From: Candidatus Micrarchaeota archaeon
GTDB lineage: Archaea > Micrarchaeota > Micrarchaeia > Anstonellales > Bilamarchaeaceae
Direction of reading: 5' to 3'
Assembly: GCA_018304385.1 (NCBI GenBank)
Contig: JAGVWJ010000027.1
Coordinates: 1 to 12,904, forward strand
DNA: 12,904 nt
Positions 4,296 through 12,904 of the stretch are shown one piece after another. The notes under the pieces were generated by a model, which saw nothing but the letters and a program-made list of their open reading frames with translations, was not told the DNA's origin and did no database searches. The stretch's first letter is position 1; each line of letters opens with the position of its first letter. A program made the translations under genes and the position numbers.

Positions 4296-4346
4296 GCTAT
4301 TGGCTATTAGCATGTGGCTAGTAGCTAAAAGCTATACAAGCTAATG
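4296..4346. repeat. Degenerate heptamer tandem array (GCTANNN)
   Basis: gctattg gctatta gcatgtg gctagta gctaaaa gctatac (4296-4337), then aa gctaatg. TGGCTATTAGC-atgtg-GCTAGTAGCTA can pair as an 11-bp stem with G-U pairs. Confidence 0.85.
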
Positions 4347-4351
4347 ATTTT

Positions 4352-4948
4352 ATGACTAACAAAAAGATTGTTTCCCCAGGTGAGCAGCTAGGAAGCTGTG
4401 AAGAGTTTATAGCTGGTAAAAATACATTTACCGATAAAGATGATATATACGCTGCAGCAGTTGGTGAACAGGAAAGCTTTGGTAGGATGATTCAGGTAAA
4501 TAACAAGAAAATGTTTGTCCTTATAACTGAAGGCATGGAAGTGTATTGTATCGTGAGAGAGCTAACTGGTACAAAGGCCTTTGTATCGTGCATCCCAATA
4601 CTAAAAGATAATGAACGATCCTTTCCTGACTTTGAGGCAGTATTGCCAGTGTCGAGTATTAGACATGGTTATGTTGAAAATATAAGGGACGAGGTTCGCA
4701 TAGGGGATATTCTGAAGGCAAAGGTAACGAAGATTGAAAGGCAGGACATAGACGTAAGCATTTCAGAGCAAGGTTATGGCGTCATTAAGGCGTTTTGCAG
4801 TCGTTGCAGAAACATTATGATTATAAATGGTAATAATCTAAATTGTAATAAATGTAATAGAATAGAGAATAGAAAACTACCTTATGGCTATAATAAACCT
4901 AAGGATCAAGGGGATCGATATGGAAGTAAATATTCTAAATTCAGATAA
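4352..4948 (+). CDS. csl4: Exosome complex RNA-binding protein Csl4
   Basis: N-terminal VSPGEQLG, S1 domain (RIGDILKAKV), C-terminal zinc ribbon CSRC...CNKC and ENRK. Lies directly upstream of rpoL, as is common in archaea. Confidence 0.93.
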   Translation: MTNKKIVSPGEQLGSCEEFIAGKNTFTDKDDIYAAAVGEQESFGRMIQVNNKKMFVLITEGMEVYCIVRELTGTKAFVSCIPILKDNERSFPDFEAVLPVSSIRHGYVENIRDEVRIGDILKAKVTKIERQDIDVSISEQGYGVIKAFCSRCRNIMIINGNNLNCNKCNRIENRKLPYGYNKPKDQGDRYGSKYSKFR

Positions 4949-5195
4949 AAAAACATTAGAACTTGAATTTGTTGGTGTTGATCATGTTATTCCACAGCTC
5001 TTAGCTGTTTCACTTAATAATGACAAGGATGTTGAATTTGCTGCTTACAAAATAGACCATGTTATTGATGCGAAACCAAGACTTTTCGTAAAAACAAAAA
5101 AAGGCGAGCCAGTCGATCTTGTTTTAGAGAAGCTGGAACAGCTTAAAGAGCAAACAGCAGATTTTCGCAAACAATTTAAAGAGGCAGTTAAATAA
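4920..5195 (+). CDS. rpoL: DNA-directed RNA polymerase subunit L (Rpo11)
   Basis: MEVNIL...LELEFVGVDH...DVEFAAYKIDH...PRLFVKT. About 91 aa from ATG 4920 with AGGGGAT SD. Adjacent to csl4. Confidence 0.9.
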   Translation: MEVNILNSDKKTLELEFVGVDHVIPQLLAVSLNNDKDVEFAAYKIDHVIDAKPRLFVKTKKGEPVDLVLEKLEQLKEQTADFRKQFKEAVK

Positions 5196-5230
5196 TTAGC
5201 TTTGGGCCTTGAGCCTTGGGCAGTGAGCCT
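5196..5230 (+). repeat. Degenerate heptamer tandem array (TKRGCNN)
   Basis: ttagctt tgggcct tgagcct tgggcag tgagcct fills the gap between the rpoL stop and ATG 5232. Confidence 0.85.
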
Positions 5231-5231
5231 C

Positions 5232-6224
5232 ATGCGGTCTAATAAAATTAATAGTATTCTTACTAAATGGTATTTTCAATTAGGAATATTATTGGTTACT
5301 CTTTTTCTGTTTCTTATTTTTCGTAACCCTATATTCGGCTTTTTGGTTGGGATTGAGCTTATCGTCATGGTAATTTTTGAAATAAAATATGGCGCAAAAA
5401 AACACGGGTGGAAGCACGAACTTTTAGATACAGTAATCGCATTATTTGTAGCTTTGTTTATTTGGTATCTTGCATCATTTCTGTTAAATACTGGTTCGCC
5501 TTTATCTGCTGTTGCATCTTGTAGCATGCTGTCGAATTTGCAGCGCGGCGATTTCGTTGTTGTCCAAGGCAGTAAGATTAATGCGCATGAGATATCTATG
5601 ACTGAGGCGGGGTTTGCTGCAATTAAAGATGATGCAATAATATTTTATGGAGATAAGCAACTAAGTACTGTTAAAGGTTCTATATATTCTTATTGTAATT
5701 CTTTTTCAGGAGATTCTGTCTGCAGAGAATTTATCAATGCCCCAGAACAGTTTATAGAAAAGAAAGGTCCATTAACGTTTCATTATTCTAGATGTGAATT
5801 AGCTACAGAAGCTGGATTAAAATATGTGCCGTGTGTTACCAGTGTAGATTATGCAGGAAAGGATTACAAACAGTCCTTTGATAATGATATTATAGTTTAT
5901 ACACCAACAAAAGGTGATATATTTTCTGTTATTGGTGATATTGTTCACCGCTCATATTTTAAAATAACAACGGATACTGGAAATGTTTATTATCTTTCTA
6001 AAGGAGATAACAATCCTGTTTTTGATATTCAGTTTTATGATTATAAGTATAATGCAGGTAATAGTCCTGTAAATAGTAATAATGTTAAAGGAAAGGTAGT
6101 TACTCGTATTCCCTATCTAGGTTATTTCAAACTTTTAATTACGCCAGCCATTGATCACAAAGGGCAGATAACCTCTTTAGGTGTGATGGATATTGAGCAG
6201 TGTAAAACTCAACTTAAGCCATAA
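5232..6224 (+). CDS. Signal peptidase I, archaeal Sec11/S26B type, with a large insertion
   Basis: Box B VASCSM (Ser at 5523), RGDFVVV, IVHR (His at 5946), SKGDNN..D and RIPYLGY. N-terminal TM helices. Start at ATG 5232 because the upstream TTG extension only translates the repeat array. Confidence 0.88.
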   Translation: MRSNKINSILTKWYFQLGILLVTLFLFLIFRNPIFGFLVGIELIVMVIFEIKYGAKKHGWKHELLDTVIALFVALFIWYLASFLLNTGSPLSAVASCSMLSNLQRGDFVVVQGSKINAHEISMTEAGFAAIKDDAIIFYGDKQLSTVKGSIYSYCNSFSGDSVCREFINAPEQFIEKKGPLTFHYSRCELATEAGLKYVPCVTSVDYAGKDYKQSFDNDIIVYTPTKGDIFSVIGDIVHRSYFKITTDTGNVYYLSKGDNNPVFDIQFYDYKYNAGNSPVNSNNVKGKVVTRIPYLGYFKLLITPAIDHKGQITSLGVMDIEQCKTQLKP

Positions 6225-6228
6225 ACTG

Positions 6229-6290
6229 TAGGCAATAGGTAATGAGTCTTGAGCAGTGAGCCATGAGCCCTGGGCAGTGGTATTGAGCAT
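6229..6290 (+). repeat. Degenerate heptamer tandem array (TRRGYNN)
   Basis: taggcaa taggtaa tgagtct tgagcag tgagcca tgagccc tgggcag tggtat tgagcat, immediately after the signal peptidase stop. Confidence 0.88.
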
Positions 6291-6334
6291 TTATTTATAT
6301 TCTTTTTCTTACATTAAAAATAACGAAGGTTATT

Positions 6335-7135
6335 ATGAAAAAACTTGCGCTAGCAGCTGCTCTTCGCCAACCAGTAAGAAGAAAATTAAATTTGCGCCAG
6401 AGCGATTTGGTTTCAATGTGGGATGATTTTATAGACTGGCCAGCAAGAAGAGCAGCTGAAAAAGGATTCTTTGAACGGGCTTTCGAAAAGCGTTGGATTA
6501 CTCGAGTTTTTGATGCATGTTGCGGTACTGGTTGTGATAGCATACATCTCATAAAGCAAGGTTTGCAAGTTACAAGTAATGAGGTAGATTCAGTCTTTAG
6601 AAAAAAAGCAAGGGAAAATGCAGAACGAAATGGCGTTAGACTTAAATTAACTGCGCATGATTGGAGGGATATCAAATTGGAAGATACAAGTTTTGATGCC
6701 GTCATATGTTTAGGTAATTCTTTATGCTACCTTTTTGGCCATGTTGACAGGATAAAAGCCTTAAGTGAATTTAGGAGACTTTTACGCACTCGTGGAATAT
6801 TAATAATTGATGAAAGAAATTTCCAAAGAATTTTTGATAATAAAGATACTATTCTAGCAGACCCAAGATCATATACTGTTACTCATGTTTATTGTGGCAA
6901 AGAGGTAATCGGTTATCCAACTGAAATAAAGAATGATCGCATTGTTATGGAATATTTAGATTTAAGAAACGGAAAAACCGCGCATTTAGTTCTTTATCCA
7001 TTTAAGCAAGGAGAACTAAGACAACTTCTCATTGATGCTGGTTTTAGACCTGAACGGATTTCTACATTTAGTGATTACGAGCAAGGGGTTAATCCGAATG
7101 CTGATTTTTATCAATATGTTTGTGTTAAGTCTTAA
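6335..7135 (+). CDS. Class I SAM-dependent methyltransferase, glycine/sarcosine N-methyltransferase-like
   Basis: WDDFIDWPARRAAEKGFF, motif I FDACCGTG, DWRD, FDAVICLGNS, LIIDERNF, YCG..V..YP, L.LYPF and C-terminal DFYQYV.VK all parallel the GSMT family. Confidence 0.85.
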   Translation: MKKLALAAALRQPVRRKLNLRQSDLVSMWDDFIDWPARRAAEKGFFERAFEKRWITRVFDACCGTGCDSIHLIKQGLQVTSNEVDSVFRKKARENAERNGVRLKLTAHDWRDIKLEDTSFDAVICLGNSLCYLFGHVDRIKALSEFRRLLRTRGILIIDERNFQRIFDNKDTILADPRSYTVTHVYCGKEVIGYPTEIKNDRIVMEYLDLRNGKTAHLVLYPFKQGELRQLLIDAGFRPERISTFSDYEQGVNPNADFYQYVCVKS

Positions 7136-7947
7136 CCATAATGGCTATCGCCAAATTCTAAAGTAAGCACCTGCTCTAAAGATGTTTTTAGTTTATCTTT
7201 CTCTTTGCGTGACATATTAAGTTGTTCAATTTTTTGATCCCATTTTACAAGCGAACTCGCAATGCGTTGAAGTAAACGCTCATTATCCGTATATTTCGCA
7301 TATTGTAATAGGCAGCGAAGCGCATATTCACTCTCACTCTCACCAAGAGCTTCAATAATAGCATTTCTAAGCATATGTGAGCCTTCTACCTCTATTGCGG
7401 ATAAAAATGAAAAGTGGTAACTAAGCAATTTGGCAGCATCATCTCCTGGCAGCGAAGCAAGCATCTTAACCAATTCGATCATGCCTTCTAAAGCAAAATT
7501 GTAGTTGAACATTGAACGATAAACATTTACCCTTACTTGCGAGGGATCTATATTTGGAAATTTTCTTCTATAAAAGTCAAAGTTATACATTGTTTTAAGT
7601 TCTGAGCTTTGTGCTAAAGCCTCATGGACCATATATAAAACCAGCTGCCTTACTGTATCATTTTCTTTTTTATACATGTTTTTTATTTTTTCTATAGCTT
7701 CATCCTTTCCATTTTCTTTTACAGCAACTGGGTAAAATTTTAATGTAAAGAATGCCTGCTCCAATTCTTTGAGTGTTTTATCCATTGGATCAAGTTCTTT
7801 TTTTTCATTATCTGGTTTATCTTGTGTAGCTAGTGGCATTGGTGTTTCCTGTATTGTTTCAGTTGTTATCTGTGAAATATCTTCTATTCTAGGGGTGCTA
7901 AAATTTTTCTCCTTCCCTTTTTTTGTCTTGTTATTTTTCGATACCAT
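7132..7947 (-). CDS. Hypothetical helical protein with C-terminal HEAT/PBS-lyase-like repeats
   Basis: Long ORF with a disordered, charged N-terminus. LRNAIIEALGE...ALRCLLQY...RLLQRIASSL fits HEAT-like helical pairs. TTTTAAAA lies about 27 nt upstream of the ATG. Confidence 0.75.
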   Translation of the reverse strand: MVSKNNKTKKGKEKNFSTPRIEDISQITTETIQETPMPLATQDKPDNEKKELDPMDKTLKELEQAFFTLKFYPVAVKENGKDEAIEKIKNMYKKENDTVRQLVLYMVHEALAQSSELKTMYNFDFYRRKFPNIDPSQVRVNVYRSMFNYNFALEGMIELVKMLASLPGDDAAKLLSYHFSFLSAIEVEGSHMLRNAIIEALGESESEYALRCLLQYAKYTDNERLLQRIASSLVKWDQKIEQLNMSRKEKDKLKTSLEQVLTLEFGDSHYG

Positions 7948-8039
7948 AATGTTTTATTTATTATCTACGTTTTAAAAACATGACTGTAGATATTTGCATA
8001 ATTAATATTCTAACAAATACGTCGTAGTATTGATGGTTT

Positions 8040-8083
8040 CTATAGGGACGCAGTCTAATAAAAGCCTAAGGCTGCGTCTGTAG
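8040..8083. other. GC-rich inverted repeat / hairpin in a divergent intergenic region
   Basis: GACGCAGTCT (8047-8056) pairs with AGGCTGCGTC (8069-8078, one G-U). Outer CTATA/TGTAG pairing. Directly followed by TTTTATA. Confidence 0.65.
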
Positions 8084-8118
8084 TTTTATAGTTTCTTAAG
8101 CATTTATTTGGTGGGTTA

Positions 8119-8664
8119 ATGGTCATTTATTTCGCAACTAGTAATGAGCATAAATTTAAGGAAGCAAACGAGATCTTGTCCGCTAAAGGAATAAGTGTCG
8201 AGCACTTTAATTTTAAGCATAATGAGATTCGCTCTGATAGTTTAGAAGAAATTGCTATGGAAGCGGTTGATACAACTTTCGCACAGCTAAAGAAACCAGT
8301 ATTTGTTGAAGACACTGGACTTTTTATTGACGCGCTAAATGGATTCCCTGGGACTTATTCTGCATGGGCACTTAAAAAAATTGGGAGCGATGGAATATTA
8401 AAATTACTGAAAAGTGCGAGCAATCGAGCTGCGACATTTAAAACGTGCATTGCATTTGCTAATGGCAAAATAACAAAAACATTTTTAGGAGAGTGTAAGG
8501 GAGCAATTGCAACTAAAAAACGTGGAAAAAGCGGATTCGGTTATGACCCAATTTTTACCCCAAAAGGTTATAAGAAAACATTTGCAGAGGATTTAGAAAT
8601 TAAAGTTAAAGTATCACATCGCTTTGCTGCCTTGCAAAAGCTGACAGAATTTCTTAAAGCCTAG
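8119..8664 (+). CDS. rdgB: Non-canonical purine NTP pyrophosphatase (RdgB/HAM1)
   Basis: FATSNEHKFKE, VEDTGLFIDALNGFPGTYS, GFGYDPIF and SHR motifs. GGTGG SD. Confidence 0.96.
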   Translation: MVIYFATSNEHKFKEANEILSAKGISVEHFNFKHNEIRSDSLEEIAMEAVDTTFAQLKKPVFVEDTGLFIDALNGFPGTYSAWALKKIGSDGILKLLKSASNRAATFKTCIAFANGKITKTFLGECKGAIATKKRGKSGFGYDPIFTPKGYKKTFAEDLEIKVKVSHRFAALQKLTEFLKA

Positions 8665-8682
8665 CTTGATGTATTAGAAATT

Positions 8683-8724
8683 TCAGAGAGGGTTGCGCTA
8701 GGGGCGGAGCCCCCTGGCATCTGA
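8683..8724. other. GC-rich hairpin downstream of rdgB
   Basis: GCTAGGGGC-GGA-GCCCC(C)TGGC, enclosed by TCAGA/TCTGA. Confidence 0.55.
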
Positions 8725-8795
8725 GAGACCTAAAACCTTAAGGAGAAGTATTAAAAAGCAAACTTATCACATAATTTTATACTTTTCTTAGTAGT

Positions 8796-8909
8796 TTAGT
8801 TGTTGGTAATTAGTAATTGGTATTTGGTACGTCGCCAATAACCAAGGACCAAAAACTAATAACCGTAGACAAAGGCTAATTGCTAAAAGCTGATGGCTAA
8901 GAGCTGAAA
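8796..8909. repeat. Composite heptamer arrays in the rps15 leader: TTRGTNN x5, inverted RCYAANN x4, GCTRNNN x5
   Basis: ttagttg ttggtaa ttagtaa ttggtat ttggtac / gccaata accaagg accaaaa actaata / gctaatt gctaaaa gctgatg gctaaga gctgaaa. Confidence 0.88.
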
Positions 8910-8919
8910 TGGTATTTAT

Positions 8920-9375
8920 ATGTCTAAATTGCATTCGCGTAAAAAGGGGAAATCAGGGTCAAGGAGACCAAAATCTGCAGCTAGTGCCAAGCATGTAGAA
9001 ATGCCAAAAGAGCAGATAGAAGAACTAATATTGAAGATGGTCAAAGAAGGCACGCCTGAAGCAAAAGTGGGCCTTATTTTAAGAGACAAACATAATGTCC
9101 CTTCTGTTAAATCCGTGCTAGGTGTTAGTCTAAGTGCCTTTCTAAAGAAAAGGCAGTCATTACCTGAATATCCAGATGATCTATTAAATCTAATAAAAAA
9201 AGCAATGCGCGTTAGAAATCACTTAAGGATTGCTAAAAAGGATGTTCACAATAAAGTTAAATTGTTGCATATTGAATCAAAGATTCACAGATTAGTTAAG
9301 TATTATACTAATTCAGGTAGATTACCAGTTAGTTGGAGATATAATCCAGAGCAAGCAGCATTATTAGTAAAGTGA
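8920..9375 (+). CDS. rps15: 30S ribosomal protein S15 (uS15 / S13e type)
   Basis: MSKLHSRKKGKSGSRRP, IGLILRD-like VGLILRDKH, YPDDLLNLIKKA, KLLHIESKIHRLVKYY and WRYNPEQAALLV. Confidence 0.97.
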   Translation: MSKLHSRKKGKSGSRRPKSAASAKHVEMPKEQIEELILKMVKEGTPEAKVGLILRDKHNVPSVKSVLGVSLSAFLKKRQSLPEYPDDLLNLIKKAMRVRNHLRIAKKDVHNKVKLLHIESKIHRLVKYYTNSGRLPVSWRYNPEQAALLVK

Positions 9376-9384
9376 GGTAAGTTT

Positions 9385-9969
9385 GTGGCAATTAAAAAAA
9401 TCGTTGATAAGTGGAAGCTAAAAAAATGGTATACTGTTTTAGCGCCCCCTATGTTTGATAATAAAGAGATATGTGAAGTTGTAGCAGCTGAGGATCAGTT
9501 GCTGACAAATCGTATTGTAAGAATTAGTCTAATGGAGCTGATGTCTACTAGTTCACAAACATCCATGTTCACATTTCTTAGGTTTAGAATTAGTGGTGTT
9601 GCAGGCAATACTGCACAAACAACACTAATCGGTCACGAAGTCTCCCCATCTTATATAAAAACATTTGCTAGGCGTGGAAAAACTATATTGCACATGATTG
9701 TAGATATTAAAACCAAGGACGATGTAGGTGTTAGAATTAAGGTTGTTGGTGTTGCAACAGGTAAGATCAGTGAAACAACTAAACGCAATCTTAGAAATAC
9801 AATTGTTGAAGAGATAAAGAAAGCAGGACCTACATTTAAATATGATGAGCTTATGCAAGAGATATTATATGGCAGGTTAGTTTCAAAGATTTTCAATCAT
9901 CTTAAACAGATTACTTCTATGAAAAGATTTGAAATAAGAAAAACAGAAAAACAGGAACAGTTTACTTAG
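9385..9969 (+). CDS. rps3ae: 30S ribosomal protein S3Ae (eS1)
   Basis: DKWKLKKWYTVLAPPMF, NRIVRISLMEL, FRISGVAGNTAQT and IFNHLKQITSMKRFEIRKTE. GTG start with GAGGT SD. Confidence 0.95.
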   Translation: MAIKKIVDKWKLKKWYTVLAPPMFDNKEICEVVAAEDQLLTNRIVRISLMELMSTSSQTSMFTFLRFRISGVAGNTAQTTLIGHEVSPSYIKTFARRGKTILHMIVDIKTKDDVGVRIKVVGVATGKISETTKRNLRNTIVEEIKKAGPTFKYDELMQEILYGRLVSKIFNHLKQITSMKRFEIRKTEKQEQFT

Positions 9970-9978
9970 CTGATTTTT

Positions 9979-10305
9979 ATGATGGACCCGCGCCAGATGG
10001 AAAAAATGATGCGCCAGATGGGCATAAAAACAAAGCAGATAGAATCCTCATTAGTGACCATTGAAACATCTGACGGCAAAATACTAATAGCCGAGCCACA
10101 GGTTACTGAAGTGGATATGCAAGGTCAGAAAACATATCAAATAGCAGGCAGTGTAAAATTTGAAGCTGGCATCAGTGAAGATGACGTTAAAATGGTAATG
10201 GAGCAGGCTAATTGTTCTAGAGAGCAGGCTATGGATGCACTAAAGCAGAACAAAGGAGATATCGCGCAAGCAATTTTATCTTTGCAGGAACAGAAAAAGT
10301 CATAA
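9979..10305 (+). CDS. nac: Nascent polypeptide-associated complex protein (archaeal NAC)
   Basis: MDPRQMEKMMRQMGI, PQVTEVDMQGQKTYQIAG and the UBA-like EDDVKMVMEQANCSREQAMDALKQNKGDIAQAILSL. Confidence 0.96.
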   Translation: MMDPRQMEKMMRQMGIKTKQIESSLVTIETSDGKILIAEPQVTEVDMQGQKTYQIAGSVKFEAGISEDDVKMVMEQANCSREQAMDALKQNKGDIAQAILSLQEQKKS

Positions 10306-10334
10306 GATAATGCCCCAATAGGAATAAAAACATT

Positions 10335-10349
10335 TAATAACTAATAACC
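10335..10349. repeat. Two-unit heptamer (taataac x2) just upstream of ATG 10352
   Basis: actaataacc (10340-10349) is identical to 8855-8864 in the rps15 leader array. Short and AT-rich, so it may be chance. Confidence 0.4.
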
Positions 10350-10351
10350 TT

Positions 10352-10939
10352 ATGGCAGTTAAGAAAGAACTTTGGTTAATTTTTATTTTAATAGTTATAA
10401 TCGCAATTCTTGTTAGTGCTATCTCTTTCTTTAATGTTAATGTGGAACAGGCAGATGCTAAACGCTTTGTGCAAGAAGATTTAAAGTCAAAATACCCTAA
10501 TGCTGAAACAGAGATATTATCAGTTACAGAAAAAAAGGATGAAAAAGGCCAAAAGTATTTCGAAATAAAAGCCAAGGTTACAAGATTCGCAAATAGCGCG
10601 TGCCCTGAAAGATCCCATACTTATTATAATTACCCAAAACAGAATTTTGTTGCACCGCCAGATGAAACAATCACAACTAACTGTTCAGTCTGCAGCGATT
10701 CTTCTAAGCAATGCGTTATTGCATTTCCAGAAGAGGCAGTAATAGCATCGCATACACTTAAAGGAACAGAAGATGTTGATCGATTTGTTAATAATAAAGT
10801 TTCAGCTGTTCCAATTGTTAGACAAACAGCAAATTGGATAATTATATGGAACTCTGAGATTAGCAGCTTTTTCTATGAAGTAGAAATAAGTAAAAACGGT
10901 ACAGTGGTTTCTATTAAGAAAATAGATAAGGATCTTTAA
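10352..10939 (+). CDS. Membrane-anchored or secreted hypothetical protein with 4 Cys
   Basis: KK followed by a hydrophobic N-terminal helix (LWLIFILIVIIAILVSAISFF), then a soluble domain with SACPER and NCSVCSDSSKQC. Confidence 0.8.
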   Translation: MAVKKELWLIFILIVIIAILVSAISFFNVNVEQADAKRFVQEDLKSKYPNAETEILSVTEKKDEKGQKYFEIKAKVTRFANSACPERSHTYYNYPKQNFVAPPDETITTNCSVCSDSSKQCVIAFPEEAVIASHTLKGTEDVDRFVNNKVSAVPIVRQTANWIIIWNSEISSFFYEVEISKNGTVVSIKKIDKDL

Positions 10940-10954
10940 AGACTTAAGATTATT

Positions 10955-11923
10955 TTACTCTATCGTAACCTTATTATTTTCTATTTTGATTTCTCTTTTA
11001 ATGAATTTCTTTATTATTTCTGCGTTAGTGTGAAAATGATCCGTAATCTCACTTGTTACTAACTCTGTTTTGCCATTTGCTAACGCAGCATATAATAAAA
11101 GCTGGTCTGCAAGATGTTTGTCTACATCAGAATTACTTTCTTTCTTTAATTCATCAAGAGCTTCCTGCGCAACTTGTTCTGCGCGTTTGCCTTTTTCACC
11201 CAGTGCGTAACTGCCGCGATAATCTTGCCATGCTAACAGCGCGTTGCCAATGTCGCCTTTTTCCTCATAAATTTTCACATTTTCAATTTCATTCTGAACA
11301 AAAATTTTCTTTTCCCTTATGGCGATGCTAAGCGGTAGGTTTGAGACCCGTATTAACACTCTTACAATATTTTCTTTTTCCCATTCTGTTTTTCCATTGA
11401 ATTTAGAAGGCTCAGCTTCTATTTCTATCTCGCCCCCGCCCCTTGGGTAATATCCAGGTTTTATTATTTTTGATTTTATCTTTGCACCCATCGTGATAAT
11501 CGCTCGCATAAAAATATTTTCAAAATAATCATAGCTTGGCGCTTTCATAACGTGCGTGCCGCCAATTATGCGAACATTGCTTTCTTTCTCTGCATGAAAT
11601 AGAATTGGTAAAATGGTTTGCGCAACCAAGCAAACGCTGCCTGCAGTTCCAATGTTAAATTCATATTTTCCGCCAACTATCTCGCCCGGGTTAAAGATTA
11701 AATCCTTGCTACCAAGTTCTGCACCTTCAAGCGTGCCCCTACAAATACTACGCACTGCTTTGCATGCTGTCAAATGCTGTGCTTGCAGACCTGGATTTGG
11801 ACGCTTAGCACGAATGTTAATAATTTTAATTGGTTTTTTTGTAATTGCTGAAAGGCTCATCGCTGTCCTTATGATCTGGCCGCCACCTTCTAGGTAGTCT
11901 CCGTCAATTTCTATTAATTCCAT
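10955..11923 (-). CDS. rtcA: RNA 3'-terminal phosphate cyclase
   Basis: IDGDYLEGGGQIIRTA, IRAKRPNPGLQAQH, GTAGSVCLV, GGTHV..AP, GYYPRGGGE and DKHLADQLL (adenylated His). ATG 11923 follows GTGAT overlapping the ybaK stop. Confidence 0.96.
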   Translation of the reverse strand: MELIEIDGDYLEGGGQIIRTAMSLSAITKKPIKIINIRAKRPNPGLQAQHLTACKAVRSICRGTLEGAELGSKDLIFNPGEIVGGKYEFNIGTAGSVCLVAQTILPILFHAEKESNVRIIGGTHVMKAPSYDYFENIFMRAIITMGAKIKSKIIKPGYYPRGGGEIEIEAEPSKFNGKTEWEKENIVRVLIRVSNLPLSIAIREKKIFVQNEIENVKIYEEKGDIGNALLAWQDYRGSYALGEKGKRAEQVAQEALDELKKESNSDVDKHLADQLLLYAALANGKTELVTSEITDHFHTNAEIIKKFIKREIKIENNKVTIE

Positions 11924-11928
11924 TTTTA

Positions 11929-12396
11929 TCACTTCGTCAAATCCGCTTTTGTTGCATTATTAGTTTTAACTATCTCTAATGGTGAGCATTTAGTTAGCGA
12001 GTTCTGTGATCCACCACCACTATAAACTATTTCTTTGTTCAAAACCTCATCATCAATAAAAAATTTTGCAGAGTAACCAAAAGAAGGCGTTCCACCCATA
12101 GGATAACCTGTTTTATTTAATATCTCATCTGAGTTTGCGAGCCTAAGTTTTTTAGTTCCAATAATTATTGCGAGCTTTTTCACATCAAGTCTTTTATGTC
12201 CTGGCACAATGCAAACTATAAGTTCGTTCGTTAATTCACTAATCACGCAAACATTTTTTACAAAATCTTCTGGCTTCGCATTGGCTGAGGCTGCTGCTTC
12301 TTCCACACTGTGGCAGGATGTTTCAAAGATTAGATGCTCTGCCTTAATGTTATTTTGCTTTATGAATTCCACTAACTTTTGGTCGTATTGATTCAT
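11929..12396 (-). CDS. YbaK/EbsC (ProX-like) aminoacyl-tRNA deacylase family protein
   Basis: HSVEEAA, FVKNV, VPGHKRLDVKKL, TGYPMGGTPSFG, FIDDEVL and YSGGG motifs. Confidence 0.9.
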   Translation of the reverse strand: MNQYDQKLVEFIKQNNIKAEHLIFETSCHSVEEAAASANAKPEDFVKNVCVISELTNELIVCIVPGHKRLDVKKLAIIIGTKKLRLANSDEILNKTGYPMGGTPSFGYSAKFFIDDEVLNKEIVYSGGGSQNSLTKCSPLEIVKTNNATKADLTK

Positions 12397-12418
12397 GAAA
12401 TAGAATTTGATTAAGATG

Positions 12419-12425
12419 TTTTATA
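12419..12425 (-). promoter_or_regulatory. TATA box for a leaderless ybaK-rtcA transcript
   Basis: TATAAAA on the minus strand, centred about 26 nt upstream of ATG 12396. Confidence 0.5.
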
Positions 12426-12487
12426 GAATTATTTGTTTCTCTGTTTTTGGGTCAAACCTCTTTAAGATAAGAATTACATTAGATCAT

Positions 12488-12580
12488 AAAAAGGCTTGAA
12501 AGAGAAAGAGGCCGACGCACTGCTGCGTCGGCAAGGCGACCAGTTATCCTCCCATGCACTCAAAAAAGAGCGTTAAATCT
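12488..12580 (-). ncRNA. Candidate small non-coding RNA (about 90 nt), family unknown
   Basis: GC-rich island with a perfect 9-bp stem GCCGACGCA-4-TGCGTCGGC (12511-12532), an upstream BRE-TATA and a downstream pyrimidine/U tract. No ATG-started ORF longer than 3 codons. Confidence 0.4.
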
Positions 12581-12604
12581 AAAAGTTATTATAACTACAA
12601 CACC

Positions 12605-12619
12605 TATATAAAGCTTGCG
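12605..12619 (-). promoter_or_regulatory. BRE-TATA promoter (CGCAAGC TTTATATA)
   Basis: Near-consensus archaeal cRNAANT + TTTATATA on the minus strand, downstream of the His-rich ORF stop. Predicted TSS about 12580. Confidence 0.6.
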
Positions 12620-12646
12620 GTAGAATATTTTTCTGTGTTATTTTAA

Positions 12647-12904
12647 TCACTCAAGTGGTGGAAGTGCTGCTGCGACTATAAGTGGTGTACGTTTTATCTC
12701 TCGTAAATCGAATATTAAACCAATCGGTATTTCGTGTATTTCTGCGTGTGGGTCATGCACTGTGTCGTGCCCTACATTGCGATGCTCTCCATGCTCACTG
12801 CCCACTGCTAAATGCTCATGGCCAACATGTAATGCATACATATGAATCATCCATAGTGGGTTATGCCCGTGCCCAGACCCCATATGCGCAATATGAGCTA
12901 ATGG
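12647..12904 (-). CDS. 3' end of a His-rich protein; frame runs off the window edge
   Basis: The frame is open to base 12904 (PLAHIAH-MGSGHGH...), so ATG 12883 is probably internal. 14 His in the 85 visible codons. Confidence 0.6.
   Translation of the reverse strand, partial: PLAHIAHMGSGHGHNPLWMIHMYALHVGHEHLAVGSEHGEHRNVGHDTVHDPHAEIHEIPIGLIFDLREIKRTPLIVAAALPPLE
12791..12818 (-). repeat. Heptamer array inside the His-rich ORF
   Basis: Minus strand reads tgagcat ttagcag tgggcag tgagcat. tgggcagtgagc is identical to 5217-5228. Confidence 0.75.

Follow-up and report, generated by a model that had tools for sequence, protein, structure and literature searches.

What are the short arrays of seven-nucleotide units that recur in leaders, intergenic gaps and one reading frame of a Micrarchaeota contig, and how did they come to lie there? 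Bacteria have been known to carry heptamer repeats since about 1990; to our knowledge, there is no agreed origin or function for them. The arrays were noticed in a window of 12,904 nt (the whole stretch of DNA analysed) from Candidatus Micrarchaeota archaeon (assembly G000, 89% complete). The host is archaeal, the window coding for archaeal-type Csl4, RpoL, S3Ae, S15/S13 and NAC; tRNA and Rfam scans of the window revealed no RNA genes. The original prediction proposed a dispersed family at five or more loci, with a possible sixth, sharing an NNRGY core, and knew of no characterised equivalent in DPANN archaea. A literature search likewise found no archaeal precedent.

Heptad arrays in the window

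The following arrays, including one doubtful remnant, were considered.

4296..4346 (+): degenerate heptad array, TTTGCTA TTGGCTA TTAGCAT GTGGCTA GTAGCTA AAAGCTA, then a phase slip
5196..5230 (+): five-unit sense array, TTAGCTT TGGGCCT TGAGCCT TGGGCAG TGAGCCT
6229..6290 (+): sense array, five perfect units at 6243-6277 with degenerate units on either side
8796..8830 (+): five-unit TTRGT-type array, 5' arm of an inverted pair in the rps15 leader
8832..8859 (-): four-unit array, 3' arm of the rps15-leader pair
8873..8900 (-): four-unit TTAGC-type array, reaching 8909 with one degenerate unit included
10335..10349 (-): possible two-unit remnant, with no support for family membership
12791..12825 (-): five-unit sense array, translated in frame as HVGHEHLAVGSEHG

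Five of the six proposed loci carry period-7 arrays (those at 5196, 6229, 8796 and 12791, and the degenerate one at 4296). The sixth, 10335-10349, is indistinguishable from chance, because two-unit chains in the genome are only slightly more frequent at spacing 7 (271) than at other spacings (158-243). In the 4296-4346 array, GC stays in phase through six consecutive heptads, with only two perfect cores; it was missed by TRF and by the lag-7 scan. This array lies within the divergent spacer between a DUF373 gene and csl4, and the orthologous spacer of the relative G002 is without it. The 5196-5230 array exactly occupies the gap from the rpoL stop codon (TAA, 5193-5195) to the ATG at 5232. The same site holds a 16-nt spacer with a Shine-Dalgarno site in G001, the genus-mate of G000, and no array in G002. 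The 6229-6290 array begins 4 nt past the stop of the gene at 5232-6224.

In the rps15 leader, the 8873-8909 array ends 10 nt ahead of the rps15 ATG. The 8796-8830 array is missing from G002, whose leader is shorter by about 105 nt. The leader arrays are identical in three further independent assemblies, with no copy-number difference at this one locus. The 12791-12825 array falls in the variable, His-rich part of a real gene (12647-12904, minus strand), and the corresponding segment of the G002 homologue differs in sequence. That three arrays (csl4, signal peptidase, rps15) end 1-10 nt before an ATG was correctly noted; the rule that emerges genome-wide concerns stops, not starts.

A genome-wide family of oriented arrays

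Chains of at least three T-K-R-G-Y-N-N cores in phase number 156 at spacing 7 across G000, and 0-4 at spacings 5, 6 and 8-12. Lag-7 self-similar segments number 108, compared with 3-13 at lags 5, 8, 10, 11 and 13, and a third-order Markov simulation gave 0 at lag 7 in the fixed-window lag test. The predicted period-7 excess over a simulated control is therefore borne out, and the family is indeed dispersed: when one imperfect unit is permitted per array, 198 arrays are found in 1.53 Mb, and they combine into 170 elements. A shared core was rightly proposed, although the true one is tighter than NNRGY, being T-[GT]-[AG]-G-[CT] within a unit T-K-R-G-Y-N-N.

Each array represents one copy of an oriented element that is about 35 nt long (28-35) and consists of five heptads. 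Four units per array are most common (102 arrays), followed by three (47), five (41), six (5) and seven (3), and the commonest array is a degenerate first unit plus four perfect units. From the outer end inward, a degenerate unit (TTRGCNN or (T)TACTGCCW) precedes three T-K-R-G-Y-N-N units, after which comes an inner unit that in most cases is TGAGCCA. Both end units are defined and differ from those between them.

These features bear on whether the arrays are a mutational by-product, in which in-place polymerase slippage favouring 7-nt units is followed by point-mutation decay. For the slippage hypothesis of heptamers PMC4692102 cites Mrazek 2007, and in many bacteria the long simple repeats contain an excess of heptamers (PMC4692102). 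In Coxiella the heptamer number differs between strains (PMC4990558). Also in line with slippage, the units of one array are mutually unlinked in G000 and assort combinatorially. However, array lengths peak at four units instead of declining steadily, the end units differ from the inner ones, and one core is repeated at about 200 loci. Inverted pairs keep a strict polarity, and arrays are oriented relative to genes. Decay should be equal at core and spacer positions, but the 5-nt core is retained in about 800 units while 2-3 positions are free. We observed neither near-identical units nor open-ended lengths nor, at the one locus compared, the copy-number variation of a contingency locus. Given a fixed array length (4-5 units), defined end units and a locus that is unchanged in three further assemblies, the arrays are not slippage microsatellites, as the original prediction had argued. 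In-place slippage is in our judgement quite an improbable origin. A core retained beside free positions might just as well point to a host function.

Recent copy-and-paste from master copies was considered and rejected, as near-identical array pairs are not in excess (12 observed versus 9.5 +/- 3.4 under unit shuffling).

All 26 inverted pairs have the same polarity, TKRGY arm - loop - RCYMA arm (p 3e-8). Such pairs, some of which could form hairpins, and the location of arrays after stop codons recall REP/BIME-like palindromes mobilised by a Y1 (RAYT/IS200-type) transposase. The arms, however, lack the specific complementarity of such palindromes: partner arms pair only via the common core and are no more complementary than non-partner arms (0.74 versus 0.77). 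About 85% of the elements are solo arrays. G000, G002 and G009 gave no match to the Y1 transposase (PF01797), which is present in several array-less genomes; its presence does not track the arrays, and it was rejected as the mobiliser. A REP/BIME-like origin thus appears very improbable. Selection for hairpins was rejected as well, since partner arms show no covariation at the free positions, and the fold of the rps15 leader (8790-8912, MFE -31.2 kcal/mol) reaches only a modest z of -2.3 against shuffles.

Position of the arrays relative to genes

Spacers account for about 13% of the genome and contain about two thirds of the arrays. Solo arrays in co-directional spacers are sense in 38 cases and antisense in 17. 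Among the sense arrays, 33 of 38 begin at -7 to +19 nt relative to the stop codon upstream, and that stop is nearer than the next start in 29 of 38 (p 0.0017). This tight start at the stop codon persists even in long spacers, and several arrays exactly span the distance from the stop to the next start. TAG accounts for 45% of these preceding stops, compared with 25% genome-wide, and the stop often forms part of the first unit.

Arrays are found also in divergent promoter spacers and in coding regions, where the orientation is antisense for 24 gene-interior arrays and sense for 5. The sense reading closes at least two frames in 146 of the 198 arrays, and 83 of the 198 are free of stops in every antisense frame. 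In a LeuRS-like gene, a full in-frame inverted pair adds 10 aa relative to five orthologues. Two coding-sequence matches of 3-4 units, one at aa 856-863 of the LeuRS-like gene and the other in a glycine-cleavage-like gene of G002, were dismissed as chance matches, being conserved native coding sequence.

We also observed a paralogous 'tagged' gene family, the N-terminus of which bears a translated array copy, encoding residues 5-14. A search for orthologues of this family in five relatives, with a cut-off of E <= 1e-15, gave no match, a negative that carries no weight.

Distribution among relatives

When 401 genomes of the phylum were scanned, the arrays were found to be confined to three genera. 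Four-unit pattern matches number 140 in G000, 35 in G015, 20 in G009, 12 in G305 and 5 in G002; the remaining 396 genomes have 0-3, and G001 has none. Orthologous sites are filled, empty or different, both between G000 and its relatives G002 and G001 and between G015 and G305. At one site G015 and G305 keep an array after the same stop, with different units. As orthologous sites are empty or different in close relatives, the arrays are lineage-specific insertions. This patchiness agrees with the earlier suggestion of a propagating element.

The placement and distribution data allow us to weigh a host cis-regulatory module, namely phased RNA or DNA binding sites for a host multimeric protein at gene ends that would serve 3'-end formation, exosome protection or termination-reinitiation between cistrons. 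HutP-type ring proteins read triplets spaced 7 nt apart, and by analogy the spacing of 7 and the KRG triplet would be compatible with phased-triplet RNA sites of the HutP/TRAP type, in which a cognate multimer binds evenly spaced NAG-like triplets. Such a module accords with the strictly retained core, the 2-3 varying positions and the fixed array size. It accords also with the sense-strand bias, the tight start at the stop codon whatever the spacer length, the arrays placed exactly stop to start, the stability in three further assemblies and the G015 and G305 arrays that follow the same stop despite differing units. On the other hand, arrays are missing at orthologous sites of the closest relatives and in 396 of the 401 genomes, and therefore any function would be dispensable and recent. 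They lie also inside coding regions and divergent promoter spacers, and in G009, as in many phyla, arrays of the same kind are found on both sides of a selfish-looking gene. No candidate binder specific to array-bearing genomes came to light. We therefore consider a host module unlikely.

Association of the arrays with S23p (PF05635) genes

A co-occurring small gene had been anticipated, and one was found in the relative G009. Both strong PF05635 genes of this genome are flanked by TGAGCNN/GCTCANN arrays, and one of these S23p cassettes begins on the TGA stop of the upstream gene. Among loci encoding relatives of the G009 cassette proteins, 64 of 80, from many phyla, have period-7 arrays within 600 nt, whereas at lags other than 7 only 0-13 of the same 80 loci do. 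Four units are the most frequent size at these loci, the same mode as in G000, and the AGC/GCT core dominates in both sets. The upstream arm of the S23p cassettes is of the RGC type (13:0) and the downstream arm of the GCY type (11:1). This polarity, with the left arm reading RGC inward and the right arm GCY, is that of all 26 G000 pairs, and the G000 arrays also match the cassette arms in their size of about 4-5 heptads and their RGC core.

The gene itself lies between inverted arrays in G009 and not in G000. No cassette-type S23p gene is present in the G000 assembly, as far as its 89% completeness goes, and a tblastn search of G000 with the G009 cassette proteins gave nothing better than E 0.36. 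The sole PF05635 gene of G000 is of a weak type, has no arms and occurs also in array-less relatives; G015, despite its 35 pattern matches, has no PF05635 gene at all. G000 has 10 array pairs lying 150-2500 nt apart. Gene-bearing cassettes in G000 were rejected, as the enclosed genes checked with Pfam are housekeeping ones (ribosomal L15, L30, a KH protein). Just one pair of the enclosed genes is homologous, and it belongs to the tagged paralogue family.

With somewhat better than even confidence, we interpret the G000 arrays as the ends, lacking a gene, of a selfish cassette that is of S23p/IVS type and falls in the STRR-like class. The family belongs to the prokaryotic heptamer-repeat class (STRR-like) and has the architecture of the inverted ends of small selfish cassettes, the only gene of which encodes an S23p/23S-rRNA-IVS-type four-helix-bundle protein (PF05635). 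G000 possesses gene-less forms only, as solo ends and head-to-head pairs, and these ends would have multiplied within its lineage, inserting with the outer end at or just past the stop codon of a co-oriented gene. The stop-free antisense reading may have allowed arrays to be tolerated in variable protein loops also. We infer that the phased core is a protein-recognition array, possibly one in which each subunit of a pentameric S23p-like protein binds its own heptad, and that the arrays have no essential host function. The spread of the arrays probably requires an S23p-like protein acting in trans. We know of no transposase, target-site duplication or other mobility mechanism for S23p-type cassettes. 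The absent cassette gene of G000 and G015 also counts against this reading, as do the combinatorial assortment of units, the partner arms that match no better than non-partner ones and the retained core, which a host function might explain equally well. As 64 of the 80 S23p loci have arms of the same size and polarity, the origin of the arrays is directly testable through S23p binding.

A broader proposal, tentative and on balance rather unlikely, would make heptad arrays the recognition ends of a very widespread class of mobile cassettes that has so far gone unrecognised and spans many bacterial phyla and DPANN archaea. Their only gene would encode a pentameric S23p/Avd-like four-helix-bundle protein, with one pentamer per five-heptad array, and gene-less ends would spread to gene termini and protein loops without a known transposase. 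If true, this cassette class would explain STRR and other bacterial heptamer repeats.

Comparison with known systems

Rickettsia palindromic elements are selfish DNA that lies in frame in protein genes; they are 100-150 bp long, bacterial and not built of heptads. They resemble the G000 arrays in that repeats are tolerated in frame in conserved housekeeping genes, at variable surface segments.

The S23p-bearing intervening sequences (IVS) of 23S rRNA in Coxiella burnetii and Leptospira have a small four-helix-bundle gene (PF05635) between inverted repeats. In Coxiella, the IVS comprises an S23p ORF, 28-bp terminal inverted repeats and 3-4 heptamers; tandem heptamers precede the ATG, and the element is termed selfish by the authors (PMC4990558). 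The 28-bp terminal repeats correspond to four heptads, the mode of the G000 arrays, and G009 has the same gene family between TGAGCNN arms. In contrast, the G000 arrays are gene-less, lie outside rRNA, in mRNA spacers and coding sequence, and have partner arms that pair only through the common core. RNase III (PF14622), which excises the IVS, was found in none of 41 genomes of relatives. RNase III-dependent excision was accordingly rejected, and the element must be independent of the bacterial IVS excision route.

TAACTGA direct repeats occur in marine Beggiatoaceae, cyanobacteria and Bacteroidetes, where about 170 intergenic loci have 2-6 copies per set, with a patchy phylogenetic distribution that suggests horizontal spread (MacGregor 2015, PMC4679880). 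Their reverse complement, TCAGTTA, is one position apart from the TGAGTTA of G000. Unlike the G000 units, these repeats reproduce a single heptamer without variation, and most sit immediately before start codons; no S23p gene link was reported for them (PMC4679880).

Two further bacterial sets, the STRR of heterocystous cyanobacteria and the G-rich heptamers found in Xanthomonas and in Nostoc (PMC4692102), can be compared with the arrays. Like these, the G000 arrays have a period of exactly 7, are dispersed at mainly intergenic loci and turn over rapidly among close relatives. The STRR2 heptamer, TTGGTCA, fits T-K-R-G-Y-N-N. Bacterial heptamers also follow the same stop-codon and sense-strand rule (PMC4692102), by which the predicted STRR resemblance is substantiated. 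The G000 arrays differ in their archaeal, non-cyanobacterial host, in their degenerate units with 2-3 free positions and in their short, fixed size of 4-5 units; since they are not G-rich, they have no quadruplex potential. The G000 arrays are an archaeal counterpart of the bacterial heptamers and extend the heptamer-repeat class to a DPANN archaeon. G000 is an unusually clean case of the class, with its compact genome, empty-site relatives, strict orientation rule and precise start at the stop codon, and it also offers in-frame copies in an aminoacyl-tRNA synthetase and an N-terminally tagged paralogue family.

Heptad arrays in the window and across the genome

The genome under study comprises 1.53 Mb in 65 contigs (36.5% G+C), of which the window is the complete 12.9-kb contig C64, with archaeal gene content (Csl4, RpoL, S15/S13, S3Ae, NAC, RtcA, Ham1). 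The original prediction listed six candidate period-7 loci in it. Four were clearly present and one is a degenerate member of the family, but the possible sixth could not be told from chance:

5196-5230, heptad array, clearly present
6229-6290, heptad array, clearly present
8796-8909, heptad arrays, clearly present
12791-12825, heptad array, clearly present
4296-4346, degenerate family member
10335-10349, about 2 units only, indistinguishable from chance

A genome-wide scan confirmed the period: self-similar segments numbered 108 at lag 7 and 3-13 at lags 5, 8, 10, 11 and 13, and Markov simulation yielded zero lag-7 segments in the fixed-window lag test. A core is indeed shared throughout the genome, but the proposed NNRGY is too loose; the unit is T-[GT]-[AG]-G-[CT]-N-N (core TKRGY, or RCYMA in reverse). 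Runs of three or more perfect cores numbered 156 at spacing 7, compared to 0-4 at spacings 5, 6 and 8-12. When one imperfect unit was permitted, the genome held 198 arrays, of 3 (47 arrays), 4 (102), 5 (41), 6 (5) or 7 units (3), and near-relative cores (e.g. TCAGC, YCRGTTT) occur in ∼25 more intergenic arrays.

Another dispersed repeat is seen at 8665-8750 of the window: a hairpin element, rich in GC and ∼50 nt long (core GCGCTAGGGGCGGAGCCCCCTGGC), with at least 9 additional copies on other contigs; the orthologous Ham1/rps15 junction of G002, a genome of the same genus, lacks it. The long spacer at 12397-12646, upstream of a YbaK-like gene (11929-12396, minus strand), contains a perfect 9-bp GC stem, GCCGACGCA / TGCGTCGGC, of which BLAST found one copy in the genome.

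Sense arrays mostly begin near stop codons

Mapping of position and orientation, as the original prediction had proposed, tied the arrays to gene ends. Solo arrays in co-directional spacers were sense in 38 cases and antisense in 17. In 33/38 cases the start of the sense array fell between -7 and +19 nt relative to the stop codon upstream, with the next start codon up to 1343 nt away, and the nearer neighbour was the stop in 29/38 (p 0.0017). Similarly, 16 of 19 arrays in convergent spacers adjoin the stop of the gene to which they are sense. The preceding stop was TAG in 26/58 cases compared to 25% of all stops (p 0.002), and often the first unit supplies the stop itself, as its TAG or TGA. 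This adjacency is not an artefact of open-frame calling, because RpoL has the same C-terminus as its orthologues, with the array directly behind its native TAA. As the core is very well kept and the array start at the stop codon very exact, a host function of the arrays at gene ends is a serious rival to the account of them as selfish elements.

Arrays are oriented elements of about five heptads

In aligned arrays a degenerate outer unit, TTRGCNN or (T)TACTGCCW, precedes the perfect units, and the inner end favours TGAGCCA. Therefore, the real element consists of about five heptads and has distinct ends. Grouping of the arrays gave 170 elements, 144 solo arrays and 26 inverted pairs. All 26 pairs were ordered TKRGY arm, loop, RCYMA arm, and none had the opposite order; loops measured ∼1-23 nt, and in two arm pairs the arms overlapped by 6 nt. 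The inverted pair of the window folds at -31.2 kcal/mol (z -2.3). Partner arms were not more complementary than arms from other pairs (0.74 versus 0.77). We therefore rejected a hairpin refined for pairing and concluded that a pair is one oriented element in two head-to-head copies, which have only the core in common. Units assort freely from array to array, which rejects recent copying of the arrays from few masters.

Arrays inside coding regions

The sense reading closed at least two frames in 146/198 arrays, and the antisense reading left all three open in 83/198; hence arrays deep within genes are mostly antisense (24, against 5 sense). Orthologue alignments showed that a complete inverted pair adds 10 residues to a variable linker of a LeuRS-like gene, and placed a 7-unit array in another variable linker, of an 875-aa protein; two short gene-interior matches proved to be native conserved coding sequence matching by chance. 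The array of the window's last ORF, a real gene, is in frame within a variable His-rich segment.

At residues 553-562 of the LeuRS-like gene at C4:35419-38235 (L026), a perfect 4-unit TTRGC array shows zero indel relative to G002 (KKLKANCQRLR versus KKLKTKCNGLR in G002). In this alignment the array has the look of native codons that have changed to fit the heptad pattern, and not of an inserted element.

A paralogous 'tagged' family (weak GXGXG match; C40:40798-41613, C7:25153-26148, C10:5805-6593, C57:6615-7451 and others, L013-L017) has the N-terminus MRRLALGSEPWAVS..., its start also being given as MRRLALGSEPWAVSHALRANDPFRRFKPEPTHEVR. Residues 5-14 are encoded by a sense heptad array that has TGT, TGG or TTG as its in-frame unit, never TGA; this array occurs in G002 too. 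A TATA-like box ∼25-30 nt before the ATG suggests that the mRNAs of this family are leaderless.

Arrays turn over between species

Matches to a four-unit pattern in 401 genomes of the phylum

Genome, relationship, pattern matches
G000, genome under study, 140
G015, other genus of the same family, 35
G009, other genus of the same family, 20
G305, same genus as G015, 12
G002, same genus as G000, 5
G001, same genus as G000, 0
Remaining 395 genomes, same phylum, 0-3 each

Comparison of orthologous loci, also proposed originally, revealed sites filled, empty or different between close relatives. In G002 the rps15 leader is without the ∼105 nt of arrays and the csl4 upstream spacer has no array; in G001 the spacer downstream of rpoL is 16 nt. 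Between G015 and G305, one site has an array in G015 and is empty in G305, and at a second both genomes have arrays behind the same stop, with different units. The rps15-leader arrays of the window were identical in three more independent assemblies. Therefore, the arrays are lineage-specific insertions that turn over between species and are stable within the sampled population.

The rps15 leader of G001 (G001:C1, L019 1370-1500) has an unrelated GC-rich insert of ∼130 nt exactly where the arrays lie in the genome under study, which gives this leader the look of an insertion hot spot. G034, from another family of the order, had 14 Y1 transposase matches, 19 matches to the reversed control pattern and 1 to the real one, and may have a different repeat system.

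Period-7 arrays flank S23p genes in other genomes

A co-occurring small gene family, envisaged in the original prediction, was found in a relative but not in this form in the genome under study. G009 has two strong-type genes of PF05635 (S23p, a four-helix-bundle protein; 132 and 126 bits). TGAGCNN and GCTCANN arrays enclose each of them, and the start of one of these cassettes lies on the TGA stop of the gene upstream. The PF05635 search of the genome under study returned a single gene of a weak type without arms, a type also present in relatives without arrays. This gene (C22:1805-2182; with the stretch downstream, L001 1486-2740) is followed by two small ORFs and then by an 11-unit degenerate heptad array, with arm polarity opposite to all 26 strict pairs.

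The comparison was then widened to 80 loci whose products are related to the G009 protein (Acidobacteriota, Chloroflexi, Gemmatimonadota, Bacteroidota, Nanoarchaeota, Undinarchaeota and others). A period-7 array lay at most 600 nt away in 64/80 of them, compared to 0-13 loci at other lags, most commonly with 4 units. Arms lie ∼20 nt before the gene start and at the gene end, reading RGC upstream (13:0) and GCY downstream (11:1). Coxiella's 23S rRNA intervening sequence (IVS) likewise has an S23p ORF, 28-bp terminal inverted repeats and 3-4 heptamers before the ATG (PMC4990558).

Origin of the arrays and relation to known heptamers

The explanation with the best support takes the arrays as ends of an S23p/IVS-type selfish cassette that lack its gene, i.e. 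STRR-like elements. The phased core would then be a protein-binding array, its binder may be an S23p-like pentamer (the solved relatives 2gsc and 2rld have 5 chains each), and spread would require such a protein in trans. Against this explanation count the absence of a cassette-type S23p gene from the assembly under study and from G015, and the combinatorial units; moreover, we know of no mobility mechanism. A route through RNase III, the excising enzyme of bacterial IVSs, is unsupported, the enzyme not being found in 41 relatives, and so is a Y1 transposase route, as Y1 presence does not follow the arrays.

Our literature search turned up no archaeal case of such arrays, and no report tying heptad arrays to PF05635 aside from the Coxiella IVS description. 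The likeness to STRR repeats noted in the original prediction holds: heptamers are a class known in bacteria, including the STRR of cyanobacteria, the Xanthomonas and Nostoc heptamers (PMC4692102) and the TAACTGA repeats (PMC4679880). The arrays described here are an addition to this class, in an archaeal host that is new as far as we found, and they share with the Xanthomonas and Nostoc heptamers the stop-codon and sense-strand rule (PMC4692102).
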